The notes under the pieces: model-generated
What the model was told of the DNA's origin: nothing
The model's database searches: none
Seen by the model: only the letters and a program-made list of their open reading frames with translations
Source of the DNA: Escherichia coli
GTDB taxonomy: Bacteria; Pseudomonadota; Gammaproteobacteria; Enterobacterales; Enterobacteriaceae
Reading direction: 5' to 3' (one strand)
Assembly (NCBI RefSeq): GCF_003334385.1
Contig: NZ_QOWN01000018.1
Length of the DNA stretch: 64,000 bases
Shown: piece by piece, positions 18,839-31,441 of the stretch
How positions within the stretch are numbered: the first letter of the stretch is position 1
Layout: each line of letters begins with the position of its first letter
Made by a program: the position numbers and the translations under genes

Positions 18839-19887
18839 TCAGTTCGATACCTGGGGTATTCGACGACGACGTAGACTGTTCCATGAATAGACTGCGTTGA
18901 ATAACACTACGCCAGCGGTGACGAGAAATACCGCTCTGAAACCGTAGTTCGCTGAAATCGCTGCTCCCATCAATGGTCCGGTAACGTTGCCAATATCACG
19001 AAACGATTGGTTATAGCTGAAGATACGCCCGGCGATCTGGTTGCTCGAGTTGTAAACCAACAGTGTCTGTACGGCGGGGAGTAGTGCACCATCGGCGGCA
19101 CCGAGCAAAAAACGTAAAATCCCAAGTTGCAATGGCGTCTGAACGTAAGACATTGGGATCAACAGCAGTACAGAAAAGATCAGCGCTGTAATCAGGATCT
19201 TTTCGGGTCCGATTCGATCGCCAAGTTTGCCGAGTCGTGGTGCACTTAGCAGAGCCGCCACGCCTGGCACCGAGGCGATCATGCCACTGATAAAGGCGAC
19301 GTTACTGACGTTACCCGCCAGTTCGCGGACATACAGCGTCAGAATGGGGGCAATTGAGCCCGTCGCCACCTGGATGATTAACGTAGTGACAAACAGGCTG
19401 AGTACCAGTTTCGGGTTTTTAAGTGATGTCACCACTTCCCGCATGTGCAGCATCTCTTTTTTGCTGACCGGCTGGAATTTTTCTCTGATGCAAAACAGGG
19501 TGACGAAAAAGCAGAGTATGAGCACACTGGCGGTAATAAAGAATACCGGACGTAAGCCGTAGCTATCGGCGAGCAGGCCGCCAGCCATTGGGCCGAGCAA
19601 CGCACCACTAACGCCGCCTGTGGAGAGCGTACCCAGCGCCCAGCCGCTTTTATTACGCGGTACTTGTGTGGCGATAAGAGCATTAGCGTTGGGGACAAAT
19701 CCGCCAAGTAACCCAAGAAGCGCCCGCAGGATCAAAAACTGCCAGATATTTTGTGCCAGCCCCATCAACACCATCACGATGCCCATGCCGAGGGCAGAGC
19801 GTAATAGCATGAGTTTTCGGCCTTTACGGTCGGCGAGTCCACCCCAAAACGGTGAGGCGATGGCCGAAAATAAAAATGTAATGCTGA
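18839..19887 (-). pseudogene. mdtG: mdtG 3' fragment (C-terminal about 350 codons of MFS efflux transporter MdtG), separated from its 5' end by the inserted element
   Basis: Reading frame of the 323-aa ORF continues upstream without an ATG to 19887, where MdtG-like sequence (..[17 protein letters not shown]..) is interrupted. Confidence 0.85.
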
Positions 19888-20289
19888 TATTTGTTCCCTA
19901 AATACACCATGAGAACATACCTGTTAATAACAGGACAATATCAGGTGAATGATTATGCAATTCAACGGTGTTTTTCCAAGTATCTAAGCAGTTTTACACA
20001 GATTCTATGCAGTATCGGTATAGTCTCTTTTTAGCATAACTTATTGATATCTATAAAGAATCTGTGAAGTCTCTTTTCAGGGTAAACTGTATCGTGTTAG
20101 TCGTCCCTCTCTCGACTCCTAGAAAAGTGCTATATACAGGGCTATATAACGATATATAGATAGTTGGTCACATGGTGTAACTATCAAGAAACTTAACGAT
20201 TTCCTACGTGAAAGTTAGAAAGTGATGGTTATAGTTACCCTCCTAAAATCTTCATAGCTCCTTCATAACCAGTCTTAAAAGGACTTCCT

Positions 20290-20404
20290 TATGAGACACT
20301 TTCAACGTAACGGTAGAATGCACCTTCCAAGTGTCTCATAAGCTTGTTTTTGAATTATGAGACAGCTAAACTTATGAGACCAACTTTTGAGACTTCTTAG
20401 GGGG
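20290..20404. promoter_or_regulatory. res-like cluster of resolvase-type half-sites (TGTCTCATA, matching TGTCYNNTA) overlapping the promoter of the small serine recombinase gene
   Basis: TATGAGACA at 20290-20298 and inverted TGTCTCATA at 20332-20340; further direct copies at 20357-20365, 20373-20381 and partial at 20387-20394, ending just 5' of the RBS/ATG at 20409. Confidence 0.55.
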
Positions 20405-20408
20405 ATGT

Positions 20409-20957
20409 ATGGCGGTGATTGGTTATTGCAGGGTATCAACACAAGACCAGACTGTAGACAACCAGAAACTACAGATAGAGAAGGTTCACAAGGTCGATAA
20501 ATGGTTTATTGATGAGGCTGTCTCAGGAGCTACAAAGGCCACCAGCAGAGATGGTTTTAGAGACATGATGAACTATGTAAGGTGTGACGATACGTTAGTT
20601 GTGGTAGCTATTGACCGTTTAGGGCGTAATACCGTTGATGTGCTCTCTAACGTGGAGGCACTACAGACTAAAGGTGTGAGGGTTGTTTCTCTACGTGAAG
20701 GTTTCGACTTATTAACACCAATCGGTAGAGCAATGCTTACTATGATGGCTGGTTTAGCTGACCTTGAAAAAGACCTTATCAGTGAACGTAGAAAGGCTGG
20801 TATTGAACGTGCTAAAGCTGAAGGGGTTCACATGGGGAGACCTGTAAAAGCTTCTTCAGAGACTGTAAAGATGCTTATCTCACAAGGTAAAACGAGGTTG
20901 CAGATTCAGGAAGAGCTAGGAATCTCTAGAGCAACTTATTACAGACTTGCTAAATAA
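20409..20957 (+). CDS. small serine recombinase (resolvase/DNA-invertase family) with C-terminal HTH
   Basis: 182 aa; N-terminal catalytic motif VIGYCRVSTQDQ (active-site Ser), resolvase core, C-terminal HTH LGISRATYYRLAK; RBS GGGGGA upstream. Confidence 0.85.
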   Translation: MAVIGYCRVSTQDQTVDNQKLQIEKVHKVDKWFIDEAVSGATKATSRDGFRDMMNYVRCDDTLVVVAIDRLGRNTVDVLSNVEALQTKGVRVVSLREGFDLLTPIGRAMLTMMAGLADLEKDLISERRKAGIERAKAEGVHMGRPVKASSETVKMLISQGKTRLQIQEELGISRATYYRLAK

Positions 20958-21300
20958 GTTACTGAATAGTTACATGGATGTAGCTGATATTTGGCTTTTT
21001 TGCAAAGGGGGTCACATAGCTGGTGTGACGGGTACTTAGCAGGTATAGACCTGTGATAGATATTTTCGAAGATTCGGGGAAGATGAGATTCAAAGAGGGC
21101 TAGTCATTTTTTATAAAAATTTTCAGAATCTGAAAAGTTACTGTACAGAATATATACAGACATCTTTAAAGTATCTGTAAAGACTTTTAAGATAAAAGAT
21201 AGATATCCAGAAAGGATATCCGTTTAGAAAGACTGTTAAGTATCTCTTAAAAGAGAGTAAACCTTGTCAATAGTGATTGCAATAAAAATTTTTATTTCTT

Positions 21301-21963
21301 ATGTCAATTGAGCATATTTTAATCGGGAAGCATCATGGGGGTTCTGATTACTGGAGAACTCCATTTTTGTTATTTAAGAATCTAAACTGTGAATATATTT
21401 TCACGCTGGATGGTGCTGCAACTAAGCACGATACGTTATTACCCCGCTTTACGGATGATATTCACAATCAATCGTGGATTGGCGAAAGGGTGTTCTGTAA
21501 CCCGCCGTACAGCGATATTCCGTCGTTCCTCATAAAAGCGTCTGAGGCAGATTTAGCGGTATTCCTGATACCGTATAGAGCCAACACCAGCTACTGGCTT
21601 AGGCACATTTACAGCAATAACCACTGTCATGAAATCCGTATTCTTCATCGTGCAGTTAAATACCTTCCACCAGCAGGCCATAACGGGCTTACTATTCGTT
21701 CACCGTTTCCAAGTGCAGTCATTGTTTTTAAAAAAGAACCACGCAGGCATGAAATTACGCAGATGATTTGCTGTGCTGATACATTGCTACCGTTAACCAT
21801 CATTAACAGAGGAGGCTTAAGAGGAAGACCCACCATTTACCCACCTGAGACGCTCGACAGCTTCATAAAACTATACAGGCAAGGAAAACCCATTAAGTGC
21901 ATTGCAGATGCTCTCAGAATGCCTCTGAGCACGTCATACAGGATTGCGCAAAGGTTGAGCTAA
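21301..21963 (+). CDS. phage-type DNA N6-adenine methyltransferase (Dam/T1-like family) with C-terminal HTH-like extension; orphan (no cognate nuclease recognised)
   Basis: 220 aa; motifs DYWRTP, FTLDGAA and catalytic CNPPYS (NPPY), ...FPSAVIVF; extra C-terminal approx 70 aa with HTH-like segment. Confidence 0.75.
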   Translation: MSIEHILIGKHHGGSDYWRTPFLLFKNLNCEYIFTLDGAATKHDTLLPRFTDDIHNQSWIGERVFCNPPYSDIPSFLIKASEADLAVFLIPYRANTSYWLRHIYSNNHCHEIRILHRAVKYLPPAGHNGLTIRSPFPSAVIVFKKEPRRHEITQMICCADTLLPLTIINRGGLRGRPTIYPPETLDSFIKLYRQGKPIKCIADALRMPLSTSYRIAQRLS

Positions 21964-22325
21964 AATTCTCATAAATATGGTCATTTACAAGACAGGTGAT
22001 TCAGATATTAAGAAGTATCCCTGTGAACAATAAATGACCAATCAGTAATTATTCTGTGAAATAATTGTTGCAATTTATAATCACATCTGTTATAGTTTCT
22101 ATATGGGCTGATAAAAAAGTTCATGTCTTGAAGTGGTAACACTTGGGGAGGTGTCAGATGGTTGGCGTATAAAACCTCTCATTCATGGTATACCTCAGCG
22201 TTTTAATCATCGTACTGTTTCAGGCATGGACTTCTTTATCAGTCCATCAATCCCCCAGATATTTTAATCACACAGGCTAATCGGTTTTATCCGGTTGGCC
22301 TTTTCACATATGAGGTATTTTATGA

Positions 22326-23294
22326 ATGAAAAAAGAAACTAATGCTTTTATTATGGTAGATAAACGAGTTGCACAATTCCCTAAAACATTAAAGCCAATT
22401 GACCGCTTGGTATATTTCACTATGCTGGATGGTGCTGATTATTACGAATCTAAGTTCGGGAGATATGCACCAAGTATTGACTATTTGATGGTTATGTCTG
22501 GTGCTACACGTAATACAGTTATTGACTCTCTGAAAAGACTTGAGTCACACAGGCTTATTGAGAAGACCAATATCAAAGGGCAGCAAAGTATTTTTAAAGT
22601 ATTCACGTTAGATGAGCGTCCAGAAGTCTTATCAGAACCTACCCTTGATGAGCGTCGTAGAGTCAAATTATCAGGTCAACCAGAATCTGACACTAACCCA
22701 ACCAAAAATTGGTTACCTACCCAACCAGAATTTGGTTACCTACCTAACCAGAAATTGGTTACATGTAATACTGAATATAAAGACAAAAATATAAAAACTA
22801 AAGAAGAAAGACTAAAAGGGAACTTTGAAGAAGAATCTCTTAAGAAGGGAGCTTCGCTCTGTGATTCACATGAATGTGATATTAAAGAAGATGACTTTCT
22901 TTCTTTGGATGAATTAAATGATTTTCTCTCTATGAATGAATCTGACCTTGATAGTGAAGCTACTAAAGAGGTCGTTAAAAAGGAAGATAAAATCTCTGAT
23001 GTGATTGCTAGTAGTGACCATAAAAACACACAGTGCCCCGCCACTGATGATGAGATGGACCCCTTCGATGATGATGAAGAGGATGAAGAGTCAGAACGTG
23101 AAAAAGCCATTAAGAGGGTAGAGAAGAAAAAGAGATTCGAGCTTGCAAGACAAAAGAACAAAGTATCGGGTTTAGACCCATTCGATGACAGTGAAGATGA
23201 TTATTATCTTTCACCGAGAAAGAAACAAACCCAGGATGACAAGAAGCAAAAAATTAAACCGAAGATGTATTTTGCTGGTGGAGGTATGCGCTAA
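22326..23294 (+). CDS. putative replication initiator (winged-helix N-terminal domain, acidic C-terminal tail) with origin-like iterons embedded in its coding sequence
   Basis: 322 aa; N-terminal winged-helix-like region; internal DNA iterons plus AT-rich tract resembling the lambda O/ori arrangement; C-terminus very rich in D/E. Confidence 0.55.
   Translation: MKKETNAFIMVDKRVAQFPKTLKPIDRLVYFTMLDGADYYESKFGRYAPSIDYLMVMSGATRNTVIDSLKRLESHRLIEKTNIKGQQSIFKVFTLDERPEVLSEPTLDERRRVKLSGQPESDTNPTKNWLPTQPEFGYLPNQKLVTCNTEYKDKNIKTKEERLKGNFEEESLKKGASLCDSHECDIKEDDFLSLDELNDFLSMNESDLDSEATKEVVKKEDKISDVIASSDHKNTQCPATDDEMDPFDDDEEDEESEREKAIKRVEKKKRFELARQKNKVSGLDPFDDSEDDYYLSPRKKQTQDDKKQKIKPKMYFAGGGMR
22676..22820. 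repeat. Origin-like iteron array (3-4 direct repeats of about 23 bp, each containing the palindrome AACCARAAWTTGGTT) followed by an AT-rich tract
   Basis: AACCCAACCAAAAATTGGTTACCTAC / CCAACCAGAATTTGGTTACCTAC / CTAACCAGAAATTGGTTACATG at 22695-22765, partial unit at 22677-22693, then AT-rich 22766-22820. Confidence 0.65.
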
Positions 23295-23584
23295 TGAGAG
23301 AATATAACGGTGAAAAACGATACAAAGATTATCTATTAAGGCGCTACAGCATTTCTCGTGAAGGTCATCTTCTGAAAGATACTCATGGGGAGGTTTACCG
23401 GATTCGACCGAAGAAGGAAGGAAAGAATTATTTCTTTTTTGATGGTGTGACAGATTTAAAGATTGACGCTTTGAGGTTTGCAGTGCTGTATCATTATGAT
23501 ATCTGGGATTCGGTCCACCAGCTACGATTAAAAGACGGTGACCCCGGTAATCTGAGGGCCACCAATATCATCACAAAACGTTAG
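23294..23584 (+). CDS. small protein, possibly degenerate HNH/NUMOD-like; function unknown
   Basis: 96 aa; start overlaps stop of upstream gene (TAATG); C-terminal segment LRLKDGDPGNLRATN loosely resembles HNH_3-type motifs. Confidence 0.4.
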   Translation: MREYNGEKRYKDYLLRRYSISREGHLLKDTHGEVYRIRPKKEGKNYFFFDGVTDLKIDALRFAVLYHYDIWDSVHQLRLKDGDPGNLRATNIITKR

Positions 23585-23903
23585 TTTGTTTTACCATCAT
23601 CAATCGTAATTGTGATTTCATATTTGAAAAGCTTAATGCTGAAATTGAATCGTGTACTTTTGGCGATAATCATTTTTAAAAGCTGATACACCAGAAGCAC
23701 CAGAAACACAAAGCAACCTAAGCTTGCGAATCTGTGAGATTCAGCAATTGTTTCAAGAAAGCCCATTAATTCCCCTTATTTATCAAAGGGAATGACCTGT
23801 ATCAGCCCCTATAACCATAATATCATGTAAATGAGATGTTGACAATATGTTAAATAAATGTTAAGATTGTAGTATGAGTAAGAGATTTAAGGAGATTTTT
23901 ACA

Positions 23904-24194
23904 ATGACTCACACAGTTACGCGCCTTTTGCCAGAGGCATTTGAACGACTGGCAGCAATCAAAGCCAAATACCCTGATATGAAGCACACGGCGCTTGTTG
24001 GAGAGCTTTTAAAAGAGTCGGTAGCCCTGACCCCTTTCGATAACGTTAAGGGCGTTGCAGAGGGTTCTAAGGCCATCAGAATCACAACAGGCCAACTGGA
24101 ACTACTCAAAGCGCAGTCCGCAGTAGCAGGTTGCTCAATGATTCAGGTGTTAAGCACTAAGGTTCATCAACTGGCGGATAAATTGGAGGTTTAA
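23904..24194 (+). CDS. hypothetical protein, possible ribbon-helix-helix DNA-binding regulator
   Basis: ORF track 23874..24194; the internal ATG at 23904 is preceded by RBS AAGGAG; predicted beta-strand/helix pattern (TVTRLLPEAFERLAAIKAK). Confidence 0.45.
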   Translation: MTHTVTRLLPEAFERLAAIKAKYPDMKHTALVGELLKESVALTPFDNVKGVAEGSKAIRITTGQLELLKAQSAVAGCSMIQVLSTKVHQLADKLEV

Positions 24195-24580
24195 TGTATG
24201 ACTTTTATAAACATCGTGACCATTTGGTAAGATTTGACGGTAGAGTCTGGAAAGACATAACAGAAACCAATAAACCCAAGTTTACCCACCAGCAATTAGC
24301 CTCAAGATTTGATATCTGGACTGAAGCACAAAAAGATAATGGTGATTTCGAGTTTATCAGGGGTTTTGATTATGCTTACGAAGATGACCTTAAAGACGCC
24401 ATTAAATTAATTGAAAATTTTAATGGAAATAATTCTGGTGACAAACACAAAGCCAATGGTAATCGGTATGACAGGGAGTTAATTCTTGATGCCATTTCCA
24501 GAGGTCAATCACAAAGTTATATTTCTGAGAAATACGGCTTATCACGTAGTCAATACTACAAGATTAAAGCGTCTGTGTAA
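24194..24580 (+). CDS. hypothetical protein with C-terminal HTH (regulator or terminase-small-subunit-like)
   Basis: 128 aa; start coupled to upstream stop (TTAATG) with RBS GGAGG; C-terminal HTH ISEKYGLSRSQYYKIKA. Confidence 0.5.
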   Translation: MYDFYKHRDHLVRFDGRVWKDITETNKPKFTHQQLASRFDIWTEAQKDNGDFEFIRGFDYAYEDDLKDAIKLIENFNGNNSGDKHKANGNRYDRELILDAISRGQSQSYISEKYGLSRSQYYKIKASV

Positions 24581-24717
24581 GCCTGTGAGAATGAGTGAGA
24601 CTCAAAGATGAGCTACCCTATTACTAAGGTGTCTCACTCCCTCTGTAACCCGCATGGTTACTGGCCTCAGAATGGCTATTTTGGCAGATTTAAGATGTGT
24701 TTTAGAGGAATTTAAAA

Positions 24718-25041
24718 ATGAACAACTTCCCATTACAAATTTTCGTTGATAACGACACCGCTCTGATGATTCAGGCTTTCACTGATTCCGGTGTATCAAT
24801 TGACTTTGACAGGCTGTTAGAGTTGATGGCTGATAATGCAGAAAACATCTCTGACTTTATTCAGTCGGTGGAGTTTAACGAGCCTCGAATGATGCTACCA
24901 ATTAAAGACAGCAACATGAAAAGATTGGTTATCGAGCAAACGAACAAATACAGCGTTAGCCCTGAAAGATATCTCAAGGCAGCTATAGCAATTTTGTGCG
25001 CTGACAATATTTTGGTGACGGATTCGAAGGTGGTGCATTAA
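24718..25041 (+). CDS. hypothetical protein
   Basis: 107-aa ORF with RBS AGAGGA; no recognisable motif. Confidence 0.45.
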   Translation: MNNFPLQIFVDNDTALMIQAFTDSGVSIDFDRLLELMADNAENISDFIQSVEFNEPRMMLPIKDSNMKRLVIEQTNKYSVSPERYLKAAIAILCADNILVTDSKVVH

Positions 25042-25118
25042 TGGGCTTAATAATTGCTTGGACAGCTTTGGGTTTATTTGTTGGTTGCTGGGTAGGTAAC
25101 ACAGTAAATAAGAATTGA
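25041..25118 (+). CDS. candidate small hydrophobic peptide (25 aa, single predicted TM helix), translationally coupled to upstream ORF
   Basis: ATG overlaps upstream TAA (TAATGG); encodes MGLIIAWTALGLFVGCWVGNTVNKN; below the size cut-off of the ORF track. Confidence 0.3.
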   Translation: MGLIIAWTALGLFVGCWVGNTVNKN

Positions 25119-25535
25119 TGTTGCCAATCTGTTAAAAAGCTGTTGACAAATAACCTTAAGCATGACATAATTTTAATTATGGGAGAGTAATTCTCTCTTA
25201 TATTTCTTTCAATAATCCGATGGATGGATGGATATTCTGAGTTGGTGAGGTATGTTCTATACCGAACATTCTGAAAGGTGCAATGCTTTTCGCTACATGA
25301 CCTCTTATATAACCTGAGAGGTCATCTCGAAAAGTACTCTTGTTCATTCGTTATTGAATCCTTTAGATGTTTTAATTTCTTCACCTTATGAATAGCCCTT
25401 TATAAGAAATTATCTAGGGCTATTCAGTTTTTAAAAAGCATACTTGGCAAACCGCCTTTTAAGTCTCTTCTAAGTTCGTAGGCTGTCAGGTGTGCTTTTT
25501 AAAAACTGAATATACTTAGAAGAGGAAATGAAATA

Positions 25536-26246
25536 ATGGCAAATGACATTTATATTAGTGGAAGAAAAATTGATAGCTTCGGTGACTGGTCGCCACAGAC
25601 TGAACATCCAGCTATCGTTATTCAGCGTAAAGAACACGATGCGAGAATTGAGCTTGAGCAAGAGCTAAAGATGTCACCAAAGCAAATTACCTTTGTGTCT
25701 CCTGAGCCTCAAGAGATGCCTGATGTATGCAAGAGTGAAGCATTGCTTGAGCTTGAAAAGAAATATTTCCCAGCTTTAAAAGCACAGCGTCTTAGATTAG
25801 ATGACGCTTACAGCAAAGTTACCCTGATGCAATCAGCTATTGAACCGTCAGAATTTGAGATTCAGGATGAATTGTCACAGAAACCATTTGTTTATTACCA
25901 ATATGCAGACAATGATGGTTTTGGTACTTTTCCTGAGAATATCCCAGACGCGATTAGTAGTCTTCCTGATGGATATCGAATTGTGAAGATGGTTAAAGCT
26001 TCAAGGGGTGCTGGTCAATTTATTTATATGACCAATAAGAGCGATGAAGAACTCGCTGAACTTGCTAGACAGAACATCTTGGCATCACGTAACAAGCAGC
26101 TTGATAGTGCTAAGTTGTATCTCTCAAGAGAGCTTCAGGCTATGAAAGAGCTTGTTAGTGAATATGAGTCGCAGAAGAAGATTGCTATGCAAGCTGATAT
26201 TGAGCAGTTAGTGAAGATTTCTCAGAAGTATAGTAAAGCACTTTAA
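25536..26246 (+). CDS. hypothetical protein with C-terminal coiled-coil
   Basis: 236-aa ORF with RBS GAGGAAA; no recognisable catalytic motif. Confidence 0.5.
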   Translation: MANDIYISGRKIDSFGDWSPQTEHPAIVIQRKEHDARIELEQELKMSPKQITFVSPEPQEMPDVCKSEALLELEKKYFPALKAQRLRLDDAYSKVTLMQSAIEPSEFEIQDELSQKPFVYYQYADNDGFGTFPENIPDAISSLPDGYRIVKMVKASRGAGQFIYMTNKSDEELAELARQNILASRNKQLDSAKLYLSRELQAMKELVSEYESQKKIAMQADIEQLVKISQKYSKAL

Positions 26247-26270
26247 TTATGAATTAAGAAGAGGTGATTA

Positions 26271-26480
26271 ATGTTTGAAGAACGTTTAGAGACTATTCGG
26301 TCTGTTTGTGAAAACTTAAAGTTACAAACCAAGCCAGCCTTAAGAATTAAAACCAAACATCAAATTATCACCTCACACAAACCAAAAACACGCAAGATTC
26401 CAAAGTGGTGTATTGACCGTATTCCTTCTGATGCTCAAATCATAGGTGAAACGGAATTACATTATCTTGTCCGACATTAA
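26271..26480 (+). CDS. hypothetical small basic protein
   Basis: 69-aa ORF with RBS GAGGTG. Confidence 0.4.
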   Translation: MFEERLETIRSVCENLKLQTKPALRIKTKHQIITSHKPKTRKIPKWCIDRIPSDAQIIGETELHYLVRH

Positions 26481-26577
26481 AAATTGGTTGGGTAAAATCA
26501 ACGGGAGAGATTATCGAGTGACATCGGTAGTTTCTCCTTTTTTTGTATATGAACACTTAAGAGGTGAAAAAATATGA

Positions 26578-28749
26578 ATGGCACAGTTTAAAGTTGATGA
26601 TTTTCTGATTGAGCTAGGTTTTAACTCTCAGAGGGTTTTAAAAGGTCTGGAAAAAGCCGAGAAACAAACGATGCAGGTAGCATCACGAATTGAGAAGCGA
26701 TTGAATAAAGCTTTTAAAGTTAACCCTACGCCTTTAAATGATTCTCTCAAGGTCATGGAAAGAAATGTCGATAAAACTGTTTCCAAGATTGAGCAGCGTC
26801 TTAAAAACACTAAAGCGTTTAAGATTAAAACGGAAATTGAGGATACTTTAAAGCCACTTAAACAACCGAGACAGCCACGAATTAGCGGCAACAGAGCAAT
26901 CACAGCAGCACATAGTGTGAATATGTCTAAGCTTGGTGATATTAATCCGCTGATGGCTAAAATGTTTAAAGCACAGTATTACAGCTTAAGCGGTAAGGCT
27001 GGTAATATTGGAAGTGAAAAGTTTAACGCTGAACTTGCAAAATTAAATCAATCTCTTCGTGAAACGTTGAATAAACTCAGGTCACAGACAAAGACCGCCA
27101 GCATCAGCAAAGTAAATGATTCCTTTAATAATCTTGCAAGCAATGCAATTAAGTTATCTGGTGCATTTTACTCTGTGATGGGTGCTCTTAACGCTTACAA
27201 GGCCATTATGAATGCAGGTCTTAAACGAGATTCCGCACAGAGAGCCGCTAAGTTTGTACTTGGTGATAAAGCATCTGAAGCTGAAACATTTATCAGGGGA
27301 CTGGCTGACAAGACAGGTCTTAATATCTCTGAAGGACTATCAAGCTACGCTAAGTTTGCAGCAGGTGCTCAGGGTTCTATGTCACAGGAACAGACACAGG
27401 AGCTATTTGGTAATGCAACGGCTATGAGCCGTTTAATGGGGCTTTCTAACGATGAACTAAACGGCATTTTGAAAGCTTTTGAGCAGATGGCTTCTAAGGG
27501 CAAGATTCAGGCTGAAGAATTACGTGGGCAGTTAGGTGACCGTATGGCTGGTGCATTTAAGCTATTCGCTGAAGCATTGGGTATGACTGCTACAGAGCTT
27601 GATGCAGCCATGAAAAACGGGAAGGTACTTTCCGCTGATACTCTCCCTAAAGTCGCTAAACAGATGGGCTTGATGATTGATAAAGCGGGTGGCTGGGCTG
27701 AAGTCGCTAAGAGCACCCAGACAGCTTTAGGTAAGTTAGCAAACAACTGGGATGATACGATGGTTAAAATCTTCTCAGGTTCACAGGATGAGTTAAACGG
27801 CTTCTTATCCAGCCTGGGTAGCCTGCTTAGTGAAATGGGGATGAGTTCTTCTATCGCTGGTGATGCTATCGGTGGACTTATCGACATGCTTAAAGCTGGT
27901 GTAGATGATATTCGCGTATTCAATAACACCATTGAAGGCTGGATTTTACAGGTTAAAAAGTTCTATTACAGCCTTGATGACACTAAACGAAAACTACTTG
28001 ATGAAGTCGGTGATGGTTTTATCAATTTTGTCAAAGGTCTTGCTATAGCGTTATCTGCAAAGACGCTATTCAGTGCCACTACAGGGGTGATGAACCTGAC
28101 AAGAGCAATCACAACGTTAGGTACAAGAGCTAATCAGGTGGCTGGTCAGGTAACTACTGGTAAAGGTGGTGGAAAACTGAAAGGTGTAGCTGGTGGTGTA
28201 GGTAGTGCTCTTGCAATTGGTTATGCTGATGACGGTTATGAAACAGCGTTAGCATTAGCTTCAATGATTCCACAAATCAGAGGTGTCACCCTTGGTTTAT
28301 ATGCATTGAAGAAAGCACTGGATTTTATGAATCAGGAAGTAGTCAAAAACGCTAATATGCATCCATCTGGGGTAGGTGTGGGTAGTGACTTTAATCCTGT
28401 GTATTCTGGTGACCCTAATAAACCGAATATGATTAACGAAGGATGGAGTAAAATTTTTAATTCAATGGGTGAATTGTTTAACAATGCCACAATGAATATT
28501 GCAAGATTCAATCATCCAGAATTAAACAACATTAAGCAAGATTCAGCATTAACGAGTGCAGATATTCAGAGTCTGAGGGATGAAATTAGTGCTTTGAGTA
28601 AACGTATTCAGGAGCCTGTGAAAGTTTCACTTGGTGGTGAAGTTGCCATTAAACCAGATGAAACCAGCTTTATGACCTTTAGCAGTAATATCTACGACCA
28701 ATATGCAGAAGCTACGCTATTAAGTTCATCATTCCCAGAAGATGATTGA
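26578..28749 (+). CDS. phage tail tape-measure-like protein
   Basis: 723 aa; coiled-coil N-terminal part; segment AEELRGQLGDRMAGAFKLFAEALGMTATELDAAMKNGKVLSADTLPKVAKQM resembles the conserved tape-measure N-terminal domain; Gly-rich middle. Confidence 0.65.
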   Translation: MAQFKVDDFLIELGFNSQRVLKGLEKAEKQTMQVASRIEKRLNKAFKVNPTPLNDSLKVMERNVDKTVSKIEQRLKNTKAFKIKTEIEDTLKPLKQPRQPRISGNRAITAAHSVNMSKLGDINPLMAKMFKAQYYSLSGKAGNIGSEKFNAELAKLNQSLRETLNKLRSQTKTASISKVNDSFNNLASNAIKLSGAFYSVMGALNAYKAIMNAGLKRDSAQRAAKFVLGDKASEAETFIRGLADKTGLNISEGLSSYAKFAAGAQGSMSQEQTQELFGNATAMSRLMGLSNDELNGILKAFEQMASKGKIQAEELRGQLGDRMAGAFKLFAEALGMTATELDAAMKNGKVLSADTLPKVAKQMGLMIDKAGGWAEVAKSTQTALGKLANNWDDTMVKIFSGSQDELNGFLSSLGSLLSEMGMSSSIAGDAIGGLIDMLKAGVDDIRVFNNTIEGWILQVKKFYYSLDDTKRKLLDEVGDGFINFVKGLAIALSAKTLFSATTGVMNLTRAITTLGTRANQVAGQVTTGKGGGKLKGVAGGVGSALAIGYADDGYETALALASMIPQIRGVTLGLYALKKALDFMNQEVVKNANMHPSGVGVGSDFNPVYSGDPNKPNMINEGWSKIFNSMGELFNNATMNIARFNHPELNNIKQDSALTSADIQSLRDEISALSKRIQEPVKVSLGGEVAIKPDETSFMTFSSNIYDQYAEATLLSSSFPEDD

Positions 28750-28905
28750 TTTAACGGTGTTCTACGTGAATAAAGCAAAGTTAATACCCGCACTAAAAAT
28801 TATTTTTTACGTAGCACACGCTTAACAGAGAAAATACTTATATATCAAAGGCTTGGTTAAAAATGATTAAAATACACTAAGCCTTTGAAATCAAAGGAGA
28901 ATTTA

Positions 28906-29694
28906 ATGATTTACTCTAATCAACTTCGTTACAGTGGCAAAGATGGTGTTTACTTCCATCTACAAGGCCAACCAGATAATTTCTTGTCACTATCAGCAAC
29001 AGAGAACATGGAATTTGACAGCCCTATGATGGTGACCACTCAAAATATGCAATCAGGGCAGACTGTAACAGATAATGTAATGCGTTCACCCAGAACTATT
29101 TCAATCAGTGGTGTGGTTGTAGTTGGTGAATCCGGTAGTATCCTCATCTCAAGAGATAATAAGCTGGTGGAAAACTTCATCGACACTCTTGAAAGCTGGC
29201 GTGACCAGAAGCAAATTATTTCGGTCATCTGTAAAGACGGAATTAAAATTGATGATTCTATTATTACGAGTTTTAAAGCCTCTAAAGATGTTGGTATTTC
29301 AAATGGTCTAAGAGTCCAGCTAACTTTTCAGGAAATTAACTTTAAAGCAATTGTAGGGCAAACTGATGTTTCAGCAGCTACTGGCAAAGCTGCCACCACG
29401 AATGACGGTGGTGTGACCAGTAAGAAGAATGCAGGTAACGTGACCACTGAACGCAATAACGCGCCTATGCTATCGTGCAAAGAGTTAATGAATATTAGCG
29501 ATGTATCCGGTTACGTTCCGGCTATCAGAAATGATATTCTCGATGCTCAGATTAAGTGCAATAAAGCTTGGAAGCTGGACTATTCAGACTTAACAGAAGC
29601 TGAAAAAACCAACGTCACCAATGCTAATAGTAACGCTGGTCGAGTAGCTTCAAAGCTTAAAAAGTACTCAGTGAATCCTAATAAGAGATACTAA
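28906..29694 (+). CDS. hypothetical protein downstream of tape-measure gene (possible tail-associated protein)
   Basis: ORF track 28885..29694; ATG at 28906 preceded by RBS AAAGGAGA; gene order after the tape-measure gene. Confidence 0.45.
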
Positions 29695-31220
29695 ATCTCT
29701 ACTACATCAACATCTATTAAACCCCTCTCAGTGACTTCAGAAAGCGACTGTATAGCCTCTGTAACGTTGTCTGAGGGGTTTTCTGTTATAGGTAGGTCAA
29801 TTACCTTGCCGTTGTGAAAAGTCACTTTACAGCGACGTTTAGCGGCATCTATAACTATTTCTTTGAGTACGCCCTTGATAAGTAGCTGTGTCTCTATCAT
29901 CCCTTCCTTTGTTGTCCTGTCAATATCTTTGAGGCTTCCAGTTGTGATGGCCTTTATCCGCTGTGTTTCCTCTTCGATATCATGATTGAGTTTTGATAGC
30001 GCATTCTTCATATCACGTAATTTCTCTGTGATAATTGTCATGTCATCGAGTTCAATAGCGAGTTCTGCCATTTTTGAGATTTTACGCTGCAAATCTTCAC
30101 GCTGTAATTTAAGGCTATCAATAGTGTCAGTATTTTCAGTTTCAAAACGGTCGCATAATGCGAGCATGTAGAGAATAGTTGCATCCGTTTGCTTACGACT
30201 GATAGCCTTTGCACTACACCTGTTAGCTGAACGATTAGGGCATCTGTACATCCCAAAACGTTTTAAGGCATATCCACCAAGAACAATAGTAGCCCCACAC
30301 TCAGAACATTTGATGATACCCCTGAACAAGTTGACTGATAGCGGATTACTTGATACAGAAGCCCTACCATATTGCCCTGTGTTCAGTTGCTGTACTCGAT
30401 AGAATAGTGACTCACTGATTATTGCGGGGTAGTAACCCTGAACTTCTTCACGTCCAGCAGGTGTGAAACATCCAATCACAGCACGATTTCTGAGTAGTTT
30501 CTTTACAGCAGTATCAGACCACCCCTTTTGTTTGGGTGTGTATTGATTCAATGACAAGTGGCCTTCATCGTTTAAAGTTCTGGTGATAGCCCAAAAGCTT
30601 AAACCCTGTAATCTCAGGTCAAATGCTCGTTTAACAACTTCCACTTTATCGGGGATGATAGTGAATGTTCGACGGTCATCATTCAGCCTTAACCATGCAG
30701 GACAACGCCTAGATACCTTGATACCTTCGGAGATGAGTTCTTTTTTACGGTTCCATGCAGCTTGGACACGCTCAGACTTCCTCAGACTTTCCTCATGCGC
30801 CCGCTGCATTATCAGAATGCTTTTAATCAGGGATAACGGGTCTTTTAAACTTTCTCGTGTGTAATGTTCACCATCGGACAGGGTGACTACATCTACACCA
30901 GCCCTTAAGATACGGCGTAATAGCTCAGAAGCAATATCAATATCCTGACGTGACAGACGGTCTAAACTCTCGATTAGTAGCGTATCACCAGCTTTAACAA
31001 GCCCTTTCTCGATAGCGGTTAGAAAGTCACCTAGACCACCTTTCAGGTGCTTACCACTAAAAGCACTTTTCCCCAAATCTTTAAAGCTCAAGGATGAATC
31101 CAAGTAAAACTCAGGGTTCTTATCAAGCCAGTCAGTAACCAGCTTAGATTGTCTGCGTACAGAGTCCCCTTTTAGTTGTCGTTCACTTGAAAATCTGATG
31201 TAGCTGATTGCCCGTCTCAT
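29691..31220 (-). CDS. large serine recombinase (serine integrase)
   Basis: About 510 aa; N-terminal resolvase-type catalytic domain ([12 protein letters not shown], active-site Ser), recombinase domain, zinc-ribbon-like Cys cluster (CSECGATIV...CPNRSANRC), C-terminal coiled-coil; first ATG at 31220, track start at 31226 is TTG. Confidence 0.88.
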
Positions 31221-31243
31221 ATTCAATACCTAAAATGATGTGT

Positions 31244-31441
31244 TTAGGAACCCATTATACTGAAGACAATACCGGACCACATATTCAGGGCGGAGTGACC
31301 GGTAACGCCAAGCTGCTCAACGTAGAGGGGTAAGAAGGGCATTACCAGACTGAAGGCGGCACCGGTAAGAAAACAGCCTAGCCAGGCGACGATCAGGTTT
31401 CGTTTCCAGTTTATAGGGGTGTCATTTTCACAGGGTGACAT
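31244..31441 (-). pseudogene. mdtG: mdtG 5' fragment (N-terminal 58 codons of MdtG fused to 7 element-derived codons before a stop)
   Basis: Starts [16 protein letters not shown]... as MdtG; sequence diverges at the junction near 31260. Confidence 0.85.

Follow-up and report, generated by a model that had tools for sequence, protein, structure and literature searches.

A hitherto undescribed integrative element of Escherichia coli carries a block of small genes that is mostly fixed backbone

A block of small genes in Escherichia coli belongs to a hitherto undescribed family of elements of ~11 kb that integrate and replicate, and that carry tail genes derived from Felix O1-type lytic phages. 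The small genes are mostly fixed backbone of these elements and not swappable defence cargo, and so resemble a gene set for control and helper hijacking in a new phage satellite. On balance, we favour the view that the elements are PLE-like satellites of Felix O1-like virulent myoviruses, whose induction, packaging and transfer we infer, and that the block forms their regulatory and morphogenetic core, comprising the control region and the first part of the late operon. The window analysed (i.e., a 64,000-nt stretch of contig NZ_QOWN01000018.1, assembly GCF_003334385.1) had earlier been interpreted from its letters and open reading frames (referred to as the sequence-only reading), and the claims made then are taken up below.

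An 11.37-kb element is inserted in mdtG

The block lies within an integrative element of ~11.37 kb inserted in mdtG (window positions ~19886–31255, borders approximate to a few bases), in line with the satellite-like setting proposed earlier. The element has a GC content of 36–43% vs. ~50% in the flanks, and it cleanly splits the MdtG frame between ..GIVFSI and TFLF.., with one part of the frame located from 31256 onward and the other up to 19885. The gene order is small serine recombinase, Dam-like methylase, Rep (with internal iterons), block, tape-measure protein (TMP), Dit-like hub and large serine recombinase (LSR). The element and its features outside the block are:

19886–31255, no strand: whole integrative element, from GC content, the split MdtG frame and circular relatives
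20409–20957, plus: small serine recombinase of resolvase/invertase type (Pfam Resolvase on counterparts in relatives)
21179–21214, plus: phage-like non-coding stretch of 36 bp, matching a Bas63 intergenic region
21301–21963, plus: orphan Dam-like N6-adenine methyltransferase (phrog_111, 1.2e-25; PADLOC "orphan methyltransferase", 4.5e-14)
22326–23294, plus: replication initiator (Rep, 322 aa; weak PHROG matches)
26578–28749, plus: TMP, 723 aa (phrog_4036, 6e-88; TIGR02675)
28885–29694, plus: Dit-like baseplate hub protein (Pfam Dit_like, 6e-19), the true start of which is probably the ATG at 28906
29691–31226, minus: LSR, the integrase (Pfam Resolvase, Recombinase and Zn_ribbon_recom on counterparts)

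Relatives of the block were found in 473 of 5426 complete E. coli genomes, at no more than three copies per genome. The family uses at least four integration sites, and the LSR allele type follows the site (mdtG, yecE, yciI-tonB or rutR-wrbA). Moreover, two metagenome contigs of ~11.2 kb each are circular assemblies of relatives, with terminal overlaps of 27 bp (L012) and 55 bp (L027; L numbers designate relatives of the element). Matches in IMG/VR bear names suggestive of prophages called in isolate genomes and not of virions.

The low GC content, the phage-type genes (TMP, Dit, Rep and methylase) and the generic NCBI labels would also suit a decaying prophage remnant whose small ORFs are relics of early genes that no longer serve a function. 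This is highly improbable given the compact architecture, the intact ORFs under purifying selection, the recurrence at several sites across hundreds of genomes, and the assembled circular forms; furthermore, the homologous tail genes reside in virulent Ounavirinae, for which no integrase is annotated.

The more variable parts of the element are the left arm (recombinase, methylase and unknown 221/234-aa genes) and the replicon-linked slots of ORF96, ORF61m and ORF128. The small serine recombinase occurs family-wide as very divergent alleles (25–98% identity to the window copy), and the methyltransferase is a variable module (21/42 loci). Upstream of the methylase-Rep-ORF96 genes, the 36-bp stretch is identical at 35 of 36 positions to an intergenic region of the Felix O1-like phage Bas63 (E 1.7e-12), and it recurs at the equivalent place in L001, L002 and L021. 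Rep weakly matches replication initiation and O-like proteins among the PHROGs (best 4.9e-8), and its gene contains three 23-nt tandem iterons (22696–22764).

Gene order and signals of the block are conserved

The block and its signals comprise:

23294–23584, plus: ORF96, 96 aa, basic (pI 9.6), translationally coupled to Rep
23581–23766, minus: ORF61m, 61 aa, one hydrophobic helix (in the ORF list; overlooked in the sequence-only reading)
23836–23868, plus: promoter TTGACA-17-TAAGAT with ATGTTRA repeats (10/12 matches, extended –10)
23904–24194, plus: ORF106s, 96 aa, predicted single-chain tandem RHH (AF2)
24194–24580, plus: ORF128, predicted alpha/beta N-terminal domain and C-terminal resolvase-type HTH, coupled to ORF106s
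24718–25041, plus: ORF107, 107 aa, acidic (pI 4.4), predicted second tandem RHH-like fold
25041–25118, plus: ORF25, hydrophobic 25-aa peptide, coupled to ORF107
25143–25171, plus: late promoter TTGACA-17-CATAAT, extended –10 (11/12 matches, best in the element)
25172–25535, plus: structured non-coding leader (conserved gap, covariation, hairpin and T-run)
25536–26246, plus: ORF236, acidic, predicted antiparallel coiled-coil hairpin with small alpha/beta head
26271–26480, plus: ORF69, basic (pI 9.8), Lys/Arg-rich centre and small C-terminal beta domain
26503–26545, plus: strong intrinsic terminator in the ORF69-TMP spacer (hairpin 26503–26538)

All seven plus-strand ORFs originally noted between the 322-aa Rep-like gene and the 723-aa TMP gene are present and, as judged from dN/dS values of about 0.03–0.4 against relatives (the 25-codon ORF included), under purifying selection. 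The stop/start overlaps are likewise exact in the sequence (TAATG at 23292–23296 and 24192–24196, TAATGG at 25039–25044). A single operon spanning the block is, however, contradicted by strong sigma-70-like promoters at 23839–23867 (plus), 23845–23817 (minus) and 25143–25171 (plus), and by the terminator at 26503–26538.

Across the family, ORF69 was found in 74/76 loci, TMP in 59/60, Dit in 47/48 and LSR in 34/35, followed by ORF107 (66/76, E < 1e-3), ORF106s (51/63) and ORF25 (62/82), vs. only 34/68 for ORF128 and 24/60 for ORF96. The right half of the block (ORF107, ORF25, the structured leader, ORF236 and ORF69) is thus near-universal and the left half (ORF96, ORF128) modular. The order ORF107-ORF236-ORF69 beside TMP, Dit and LSR is kept even where ORF236 identity drops to 27–42%, and conservation extends from the block genes to the promoter, the leader hairpins and the terminators. 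Such retention of gene order and regulatory signals across diverged members is the signature of backbone genes, whereas ORF96, ORF61m and ORF128, present in only 40–50% of loci, behave as exchangeable modules. The earlier description of the block as cargo is not supported for ORF107, ORF236 and ORF69, which are fixed in order and near-universal, with co-conserved signals; the "helper manipulation" offered alongside it is a fair description of the presumed role of the right half.

As initially reported, nothing in the block matches a known defence system (negative in PADLOC, NCBIfam, PHROGs and Pfam alike). Part of it might still work on its own as a defence or toxin-antitoxin/abortive-infection module that travels with the element, e.g., ORF107 with ORF25, ORF106s with the divergent ORF61m, or ORF236-ORF69 as an anti-phage pair independent of element transfer. 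An RHH gene coupled to a downstream small ORF recalls a type II TA layout, the peptides of both ORF25 and ORF61m are hydrophobic (the former in the size class of known membrane toxins), ORF96, ORF61m and ORF128 are distributed like modules, and the lack of known families among the block proteins leaves room for novelty. Interference of satellites with their helpers, which is common according to excerpts of PMC9638900 and PMC9410903, would fit such a module too. Nevertheless, we regard it as unlikely: PADLOC gave no match, the supposed antitoxins are full tandem-RHH proteins without an obvious toxin-binding tail, ORF236-ORF69 is transcriptionally wired to TMP and Dit, and the ORF107-ORF25-leader-ORF236-ORF69 series stays fixed, unlike defence hotspots with their changing content. 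The small membrane peptides may have a defence or toxin role.

Predicted DNA-binding proteins of the block

Structure prediction and Foldseek searches, as proposed in the sequence-only reading, yielded folds for ORF106s, ORF107, ORF128 and ORF236 but not for ORF96 (AF2, pLDDT ~25). Two or three block ORFs are predicted to be DNA-binding. The RHH suspected at 23904–24194 is supported by an AF2 model in which ORF106s forms a beta-alpha-alpha unit twice (pLDDT ~80; 74–86). Its start is the ATG at 23904, preceded by the RBS AAGGAG, while an upstream ATG at 23874 (giving 106 aa) is not conserved. The top Foldseek matches of ORF106s were the F-plasmid relaxosome chains E, F and G and single-chain Arc, all non-significant (E >= 0.098) and obtained with a fusion-construct AF2 model of low overall confidence (mean pLDDT 52.6). 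ORF107 is likewise modelled as two beta-alpha-alpha units (pLDDT 70–84; dN/dS 0.17–0.40) and is encoded directly upstream of the late promoter. For ORF128, the proposed HTH at 24194–24580 gained moderate support from Pfam HTH_28 (i-E 0.0018) and three C-terminal helices (pLDDT ~60), together with weak Foldseek matches to gamma-delta/Tn3 resolvase chains. The ORF128 family counts only 18 clusters, Escherichia throughout. In L001, the ORF128 slot holds a 76-aa ORF that by eye resembles the N-terminal part.

ORF96 (dN/dS 0.11–0.28) was found only alongside the Rep322-type replicon, i.e., in loci with a Rep322 homologue in a 20-locus matrix. ORF61m runs towards ORF96 and is transcribed away from ORF106s, and its reading frame is kept in the diverged versions of L002 and L019, even at only 45% identity. 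Strong sigma-70-like promoters face both ways, i.e., 23845–23817 (minus) for the ORF61m side and TTGACA-17-TAAGAT at 23839–23867 (plus). The latter is overlapped by three ATGTTRA direct repeats with 11-bp spacing, a candidate RHH operator, and the promoter/repeat sequence (23836–23868) is invariant across six relatives.

A late promoter, a structured leader and a universal terminator

ORF25 (dN/dS 0–0.37) is replaced by another hydrophobic peptide of 21 aa in L002 and L007. Downstream of it, the TTGACA of the late promoter is invariant even in L013 and L015, and a leader gap of 350–590 nt follows in 19/19 relatives examined. The leader contains a +1 hairpin (25181–25197), a second hairpin (~25298–25330), a terminator-like hairpin (25392–25435) and a long stem (25413–25449 with 25484–25520) that reaches to the ORF236 RBS. 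Compensatory changes were seen in alignment A3, and 8 of the 18 pairs predicted by RNAalifold covary by double changes. All 44 leaders that have the promoter within range contain a hairpin and T-run between promoter and ORF236. A minus-strand ORF of 49 aa in the leader is, given its dN/dS of about 1.07, probably not coding.

ORF236 constitutes an orphan family, and its alleles do not co-vary with those of TMP (20-locus matrix), which disfavours a tight ORF236-TMP partnership. ORF69 has a dN/dS of 0.03–0.57 and its C-terminal part was modelled at pLDDT 59–81. In all 60 distinct ORF69-TMP spacers a hairpin precedes T5-7, with varying stem sequences (dG –16 to –23 for the 25 listed), and there is no room for a promoter between this terminator and TMP. 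The combination of sigma-70 promoter, leader terminator and universal pre-TMP terminator suggests an antitermination-controlled late operon, although terminator-like hairpins could have other uses, for example in stabilising mRNA or in processing by RNase III.

Tail genes point to Felix O1-like phages

The hub protein shares 66% aa identity (83% nt identity over 519 bp) with bas63_0018, whose gene directly follows TMP in Felixounavirus (virulent Felix O1-like myoviruses), and it is 58–82% identical to bas63_0018 in every family member. TMP is 27–35% identical to Felix O1-like phage TMPs at a similar length (723 vs. 742 aa). Moreover, the motif CTTTTAAG is enriched, relative to mononucleotide shuffles, in both phage and element and not in the flanks. 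No homologue of any block protein was found in the Bas63 genome and none has an annotated relative, so that the role of each is judged from its fold class, charge and position.

A search of the element for packaging and capsid genes yielded no capsid-remodelling or terminase gene and no recognisable pac/cos site. This would agree with an element that is never transduced, i.e., an integrative defence island whose diverged TMP and hub are dominant-negative decoys poisoning Felix O1-like tail assembly, with the block encoding only their regulation. An identity to the phage counterpart of only 27–32% for TMP, next to 58–82% for the hub, would suit a part that docks yet misfunctions, and excerpts of PMC11364771 present tail-assembly interference as a known defence strategy. 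However, Rep and iterons, LSR, several integration sites, circles and extreme mosaicism speak for an element that replicates and moves often, and a pure decoy needs neither replication nor tight late control. We give this explanation little credence, although decoys and a satellite are not mutually exclusive.

Proposed working of the putative satellite

For the favoured satellite, the sigma-70 promoter at 23839 would at rest drive ORF106s (tandem RHH) and ORF128 (HTH). Judging from the folds and the operator-like repeats, these proteins and ORF107 would then sit on direct repeats over element promoters and keep the element quiet. Helper infection would presumably activate the methylase-Rep-ORF96 genes behind the phage-like non-coding DNA, and replication would proceed from the iterons inside rep. 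The 25143 promoter would yield a structured leader ending in a terminator, with ORF236-ORF69 expressed only if termination is overcome; TMP and hub, behind the second universal terminator, would depend on this likewise. Such a late switch would be lambda PR'/tR'-style, with basic ORF69 or a helper factor as candidate antiterminators. Going only by the order and shared transcription of their genes, ORF236 (coiled-coil stalk and head) and ORF69 might work together with the TMP and hub that the element itself encodes, so that assembly of the helper's tail or virion is taken over or started anew, which would favour element transfer at a cost to the phage. As for the small membrane peptides ORF25 and ORF61m, our guess is that they modulate lysis or entry.

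Comparison with known systems

ORF106s and ORF107, each with two predicted beta-alpha-alpha units in one chain, resemble tandem RHH proteins of TraY type (Arc/MetJ/CopG superfamily), the relaxosome chains E, F and G (~110 aa) presumably being TraY. The likeness is one of modelled fold, with weak matches and no sequence similarity, and the setting differs, with transcriptional control in a phage-related element in place of a relaxosome.

In lambda, the leader terminator tR' is read through by Q, next to N/nut antitermination. The late region of the element is analogous to PR'-6S leader-tR' in having a strong constitutive-type promoter, a short structured leader and a terminator before morphogenetic genes, and a further terminator inside the late operon. 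No Q- or N-like protein and no sequence similarity to lambda late control were found in the element; its antiterminator, if any, may come from the helper.

With P4-like satellites, PICIs and cfPICIs, the element shares a ~10-kb integrated scale, a regulatory module, a replicon, a putatively helper-dependent late operon and presumed strong repression at rest. The P4 Sid capsid-size protein is comparable in size to helical ORF236, by analogy only. In contrast, those satellites use tyrosine integrases and temperate helpers, and the genes they encode redirect capsids or packaging, where the element has tail-tip genes; no PHROG family of theirs matched a block protein.

PLE is about 18 kb, whereas the present element is 11.4 kb, resides in Escherichia or Salmonella, has a Felix O1-like partner and brings genes of its own for TMP and the baseplate hub, with no capsid-scaffold gene recognised. 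The likeness to PLE (for which excerpts of PMC9638900 and PMC9410903 provide the background) is one of architecture and not of gene sequence: the element, too, is a small island in the chromosome that has a large serine recombinase as integrase, with its own replication initiator and iterons, many small orphan genes and a strictly virulent myovirus as apparent partner, with which interference is expected.

Genetic context and mobility of the element

The block of small ORFs lies in a stretch of lowered GC content (36–43% over ~20.0–31.3 kb vs. ~50% for the backbone), and the split that this insertion causes in the MdtG reading frame delimits an element of 11.37 kb (~19886–31255) with the following gene order:

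Gene 1: small serine recombinase
Gene 2: Dam-like methylase
Gene 3: Rep, with three 23-nt iterons within the gene
Position 4: the block (23294–26480)
Gene 5: tape-measure protein (TMP), 723 aa (phrog_4036, 6e-88)
Gene 6: 28885–29694, Dit-like hub protein (Dit; Pfam Dit_like, 6e-19)
Gene 7: 29691–31226, minus (opposite) strand, large serine recombinase (LSR), 511 aa

The LSR counterparts in relatives carry the Pfam domains Resolvase, Recombinase and Zn_ribbon_recom, and the insertion into mdtG is clean. The three iterons are arranged in tandem (ACCCAACCAAAAATTGGTTACCT, 22696–22764) inside the Rep gene, and by analogy this array looks like an origin located within its initiator gene, as in lambda O.

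Of 5426 complete E. coli genomes, 473 carried relatives of the block, always on the chromosome and in up to three copies per genome. A search of species-representative genomes returned two loci only, both from Escherichia. The same architecture was found integrated in mdtG, yecE, yciI-tonB and rutR-wrbA, with the site tracking the recombinase allele. Two relatives from independent assemblies, i.e., L012 (Logan SRR22802630 contig; 11,280 bp, 27-bp terminal overlap) and L027 (ERZ506742 NODE_633; 11,233 bp, 55-bp terminal overlap), are circularly permuted, suggesting an excised circular form. Together with many further metagenome contigs measuring 11–12 kb, they suggest either free circular copies or insertion polymorphism at the population level.

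The left end of the element contains two 36-nt direct repeats (repeat region 20004–20342), a 21-nt inverted repeat directly preceding the small serine recombinase gene, and 20-nt inverted repeats on either side of this gene (20176–20195 and 20955–20974), all of which may be recombination or inversion sites. The small serine recombinase itself is on the plus strand in the window and in locus L021, and on the minus strand, as very different alleles, in most relatives.

Gene content and conservation of the block

An ORF listing recovered the seven plus-strand ORFs, named here by codon count, at the coordinates proposed by the sequence-only reading, and the three stop/start overlaps it described match the sequence exactly. 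The block and its surroundings comprise:

23294–23584, plus strand, ORF96
23581–23766, minus strand, ORF61m
23904–24194, plus strand, ORF106s
24194–24580, plus strand, ORF128
24718–25041, plus strand, ORF107
25041–25118, plus strand, ORF25
25172–25535, non-coding leader
25536–26246, plus strand, ORF236
26271–26480, plus strand, ORF69

Codon-aligned comparison with relatives yielded dN/dS values of 0.03–0.40 for ORF96, ORF106s, ORF128, ORF107, ORF25, ORF236 and ORF69, which marks them as true genes and not as ORFs arising by chance. ORF106s starts at the ATG at 23904 (96 aa), the upstream ATG being unconserved in relatives. ORF61m, situated between ORF96 and ORF106s, encodes 61 aa with one hydrophobic helix, and its reading frame is retained in a 45%-identical version. 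A further minus-strand candidate, ORF49m (25198–25347), was rejected as a gene given its dN/dS of up to ~1 and its position within the conserved, RNA-like leader. In the spacer between ORF128 and ORF107 (24581–24717), a 9-bp stem (GAGTGAGAC/GTCTCACTC) encloses a 29-nt loop, and GTAACC/GGTTAC forms another, small hairpin; no T-run follows either of them. The gap between both genes has a median of 142 nt in 33 loci (measured between tblastn alignment ends).

Gene presence was scored among 85 loci with an ORF236 relative, taken from E. coli genomes, IMG/VR, Logan/ENA/NCBI contigs and 71 metagenome contigs.

Presence of element genes among loci with an ORF236 relative (denominator: loci long enough to cover the position of the gene)
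ORF69: 74/76
TMP: 59/60
Dit: 47/48
LSR: 34/35
ORF107: 66/76
ORF25: 62/82
ORF106: 51/63
ORF128: 34/68
ORF61m: 27/62
ORF96: 24/60

The order ~92 aa, ~130 aa, ~100 aa, ORF236-like, ~60–90 aa, TMP, Dit and LSR is preserved even in members with an ORF236 identity of only 27–42%. In a matrix of 20 loci, ORF96 was confined to those with a homologue of the 322-aa Rep type (Rep322), and gene-to-gene identities were strongly mosaic, suggesting that family members often recombine with one another. The earlier view of the block as cargo is not supported: gene presence and conserved order identify the right half of the block as backbone, and the left half as alternative modules tied to replicon type.

The variable part of the family is the left arm (L023 2392–4057, L010 4562–5227 and L095 5786–6073), which holds 221-aa and 234-aa genes, 185-aa genes replacing Rep322, and small HNH_3 proteins; the 234-aa gene matches phage families of unknown function (6e-18). 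Swappable cargo, if the family has any, is more likely to reside in this left arm than in the flagged block.

Promoters, leader and terminators

Three strong promoters and a strong terminator were identified within or bordering the block:

23839–23867, plus strand, sigma-70-like promoter
23845–23817, minus strand, sigma-70-like promoter
25143–25171, plus strand, sigma-70-like promoter
26503–26538, intrinsic terminator

With these internal promoters and the terminator, the block is not one operon; its ORFs are translationally coupled in part. The promoter at 23839 lies in a region that is invariant in relatives and overlaps three ATGTTRA repeats with 11-bp spacing (23836–23868), which we take to be a candidate operator for the predicted ribbon-helix-helix (RHH) proteins described below. 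CTGTT repeats are located at 25130–25150.

The spacer from ORF107/ORF25 to ORF236 measured 350–590 nt in all 19 relatives examined, and the leader promoter (TTGACA-17-CATAAT) is kept even in the most distant members. The leader hairpins show compensatory changes between relatives, with double substitutions in 8 of 18 pairs of the long stem that ends at the ORF236 ribosome-binding site, and a hairpin with T-run precedes ORF236 in 44/44 leaders (those with the promoter in range). Likewise, all 60 distinct ORF69-TMP spacers contain a strong hairpin followed by T5–7, despite differing stem sequences, and only ~35 nt remain between the terminator and the TMP start. These findings outline a layout of strong promoter, terminated leader, ORF236-ORF69, second terminator and TMP-Dit, which implies control by antitermination or read-through. 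A similar arrangement of promoter, terminated leader and late genes is found in the late operon of lambda. The first hairpin of the late transcript (25181–25197) and the pre-TMP terminator (26503–26538) both open with GGGAGAG, which may be a coincidence or a shared recognition element.

Predicted folds of the block proteins

Searches of PHROGs, NCBIfam, PADLOC and Pfam returned no match for the block proteins (the RHH proteins included, for Pfam) except a weak HTH_28 match in ORF128. Solved structures searched by sequence with ORF236, ORF128 and ORF106s yielded noise only, blastn of the block against a phage collection no match, and Rfam only sub-threshold chance matches. ORF236 has 3107 close clusters and only 21 matches among 1.84 billion representatives of 50%-identity clusters; it is predicted to fold into a coiled-coil hairpin bearing a small head. 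The NCBI name "transposase" of its homologues found no support, as no Pfam family matched even at E ≤ 10 and NCBIfam gave none.

The smaller proteins were joined into a single fusion construct, for which a separate alignment was made, and modelled with AF2 (low overall confidence, mean pLDDT 52.6, several segments being well defined). Two beta-alpha-alpha units were predicted in both ORF106s (pLDDT 74–86) and ORF107 (pLDDT 70–84), the arrangement expected of the RHH superfamily. In the ORF128 model, three helices follow an alpha/beta domain; ORF69 shows a small C-terminal beta domain, and no fold was obtained for ORF96. The best Foldseek neighbours, all non-significant, were F-plasmid relaxosome chains E, F and G (~110 aa), single-chain Arc and the HTH of gamma-delta/Tn3 resolvase, which agrees with a tandem-RHH plus HTH reading of these models. 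Of the DNA-binding features suggested earlier, the RHH of ORF106s thus reappears as a predicted tandem RHH, and the HTH of ORF128, whose family is restricted to Escherichia, is moderately supported by the weak HTH_28 match and the three helices.

Coupling joins the RHH proteins to ORF128 and to the 25-aa peptide, in a layout that resembles a type II toxin-antitoxin system; profile searches of NCBIfam, PADLOC and Pfam returned no toxin family. That the membrane peptides act in toxin-antitoxin or abortive-infection systems, or that a new effector pair is encoded, is unlikely in our view.

Small HNH_3 proteins occur in the block of other family members. ORF96 itself had no Pfam or PHROG match and did not resemble the PF13392 protein of L095, and it matched a 90-aa HNH-like protein of L022 weakly (BLASTP E 0.088), with a common ..DG[DN]..N....N[IL] motif and Lys/Arg at the expected place of the first His. 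As the profile comparison also gave an hhalign probability of 5.9%, ORF96 was not accepted as an HNH relative. ORF236 or ORF69 as a TMP-specific chaperone is a weak option only, since neither allele type tracks the TMP allele type and neither protein resembles the phage chaperone genes bas63_0015 and bas63_0016.

Link to Felix O1-like phages

The hub protein shares 66% aa identity (83% nt identity over 519 nt) with bas63_0018 of the Felix O1-like phage Bas63, i.e., the gene that immediately follows TMP in these virulent myoviruses (Felixounavirus, 86–88 kb), and this identity ranges from 58 to 82% in all family members. TMP (26578–28749) is 27–35% identical to the phage TMP across the family, ~30% for the copy in the window, and of similar length (723 vs. 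742 aa). Both similarities point to a lytic helper or target phage. When all element proteins were compared with the whole Bas63 genome (tblastn), TMP and Dit alone matched.

A phage-like link was also seen in non-coding DNA, where a 36-bp stretch upstream of the methylase-Rep genes, conserved in three relatives, is identical at 35/36 positions to the divergent intergenic region 79805–79840 of Bas63. The composite motif CCTTTTAAGT-N3/4-TCTTCTAAGT occurs once in this Bas63 region and once in the leader-hairpin loop upstream of ORF236, and CTTTTAAG is ~six-fold over-represented in phage and element, not in the chromosomal flanks (as judged against mononucleotide shuffles only). The region upstream of the methylase (21101–21260) shows shorter matches to Bas63 intergenic DNA at 33.3–33.7 kb and 71.6 kb as well as repeated CTGTA(A/C)AGA-like motifs, and may be a helper-responsive promoter or packaging signal.

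On balance, we favor a satellite-like element that makes use of Felix O1-like virulent phages, with the block as its control region and the front of its late operon. The same TMP and Dit might instead serve a non-transducing "decoy tail" defence island, which we consider rather improbable. PADLOC-DB v2 had no match for the six block proteins, Rep, TMP or Dit, consistent with the earlier impression that no recognizable defence system is encoded here, and its sole match was the methylase, as an "orphan methyltransferase". A decayed prophage, to which the phage-like tail genes might also be attributed, is scarcely credible and contradicted by the data. The annotated Bas63 genome shows no integrase; accordingly, the element is not left over from a phage of this kind.

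Extending the satellite-like reading, the family might, more tentatively, be the first satellites known to parasitize Felix O1-like virulent phages (in Escherichia and Salmonella) and the first described to supply their own TMP and hub, with ORF236/ORF69 as new helper-hijacking (tail/virion re-initiation) or antitermination factors expressed through the conserved structured leader. The interest of the region lies less in small ORFs as "defence cargo" and more in the element and its late-switch architecture.

Comparison with known satellites

Felix O1-like phages are widely used in typing, biocontrol and therapy of Salmonella and E. coli. With the element present in ~1/11 of complete E. coli genomes, any exploitation or blocking of such phages by it would affect host range and therapy outcome. 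Starting points for experiments in the block are its pair of conserved promoters, the covarying leader RNA, the internal terminator shared by the whole family, and four or five orphan proteins for which folds were predicted.

The known E. coli satellites (P4-like, PICI and cfPICI) rely on temperate helpers and manipulate capsids or packaging; their markers are a tyrosine integrase with AlpA/Pri-Rep and capsid/packaging genes, plus Sid/Psu/delta for P4. The element differs in having a serine recombinase, and none of its genes tested matched capsid, terminase, Sid or Psu families in PHROGs or Pfam. A virulent-phage satellite with its own tail-tip genes would, if confirmed, be a strategy unlike that of these satellites. 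Our literature search found no description of such an element, though an earlier one may exist elsewhere; one candidate paper (PMC10569123) proved unrelated.

The closest likeness is to the Vibrio PLEs (PMC9638900, PMC9410903), which integrate by a large serine recombinase, replicate from a replicon of their own and have a virulent myovirus as partner; the element shares the first two features and has an apparent partner of the same kind. PHROGs and Pfam returned none of the PLE marker names (RepA, TcaP, LidI and others), and the element is not filed as a PLE, because the likeness comes from gene content rather than PLE-gene homology and helper dependence is only putative. Should that dependence be real, the element would provide a tractable E. 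coli counterpart of the Vibrio PLE-ICP1 system.
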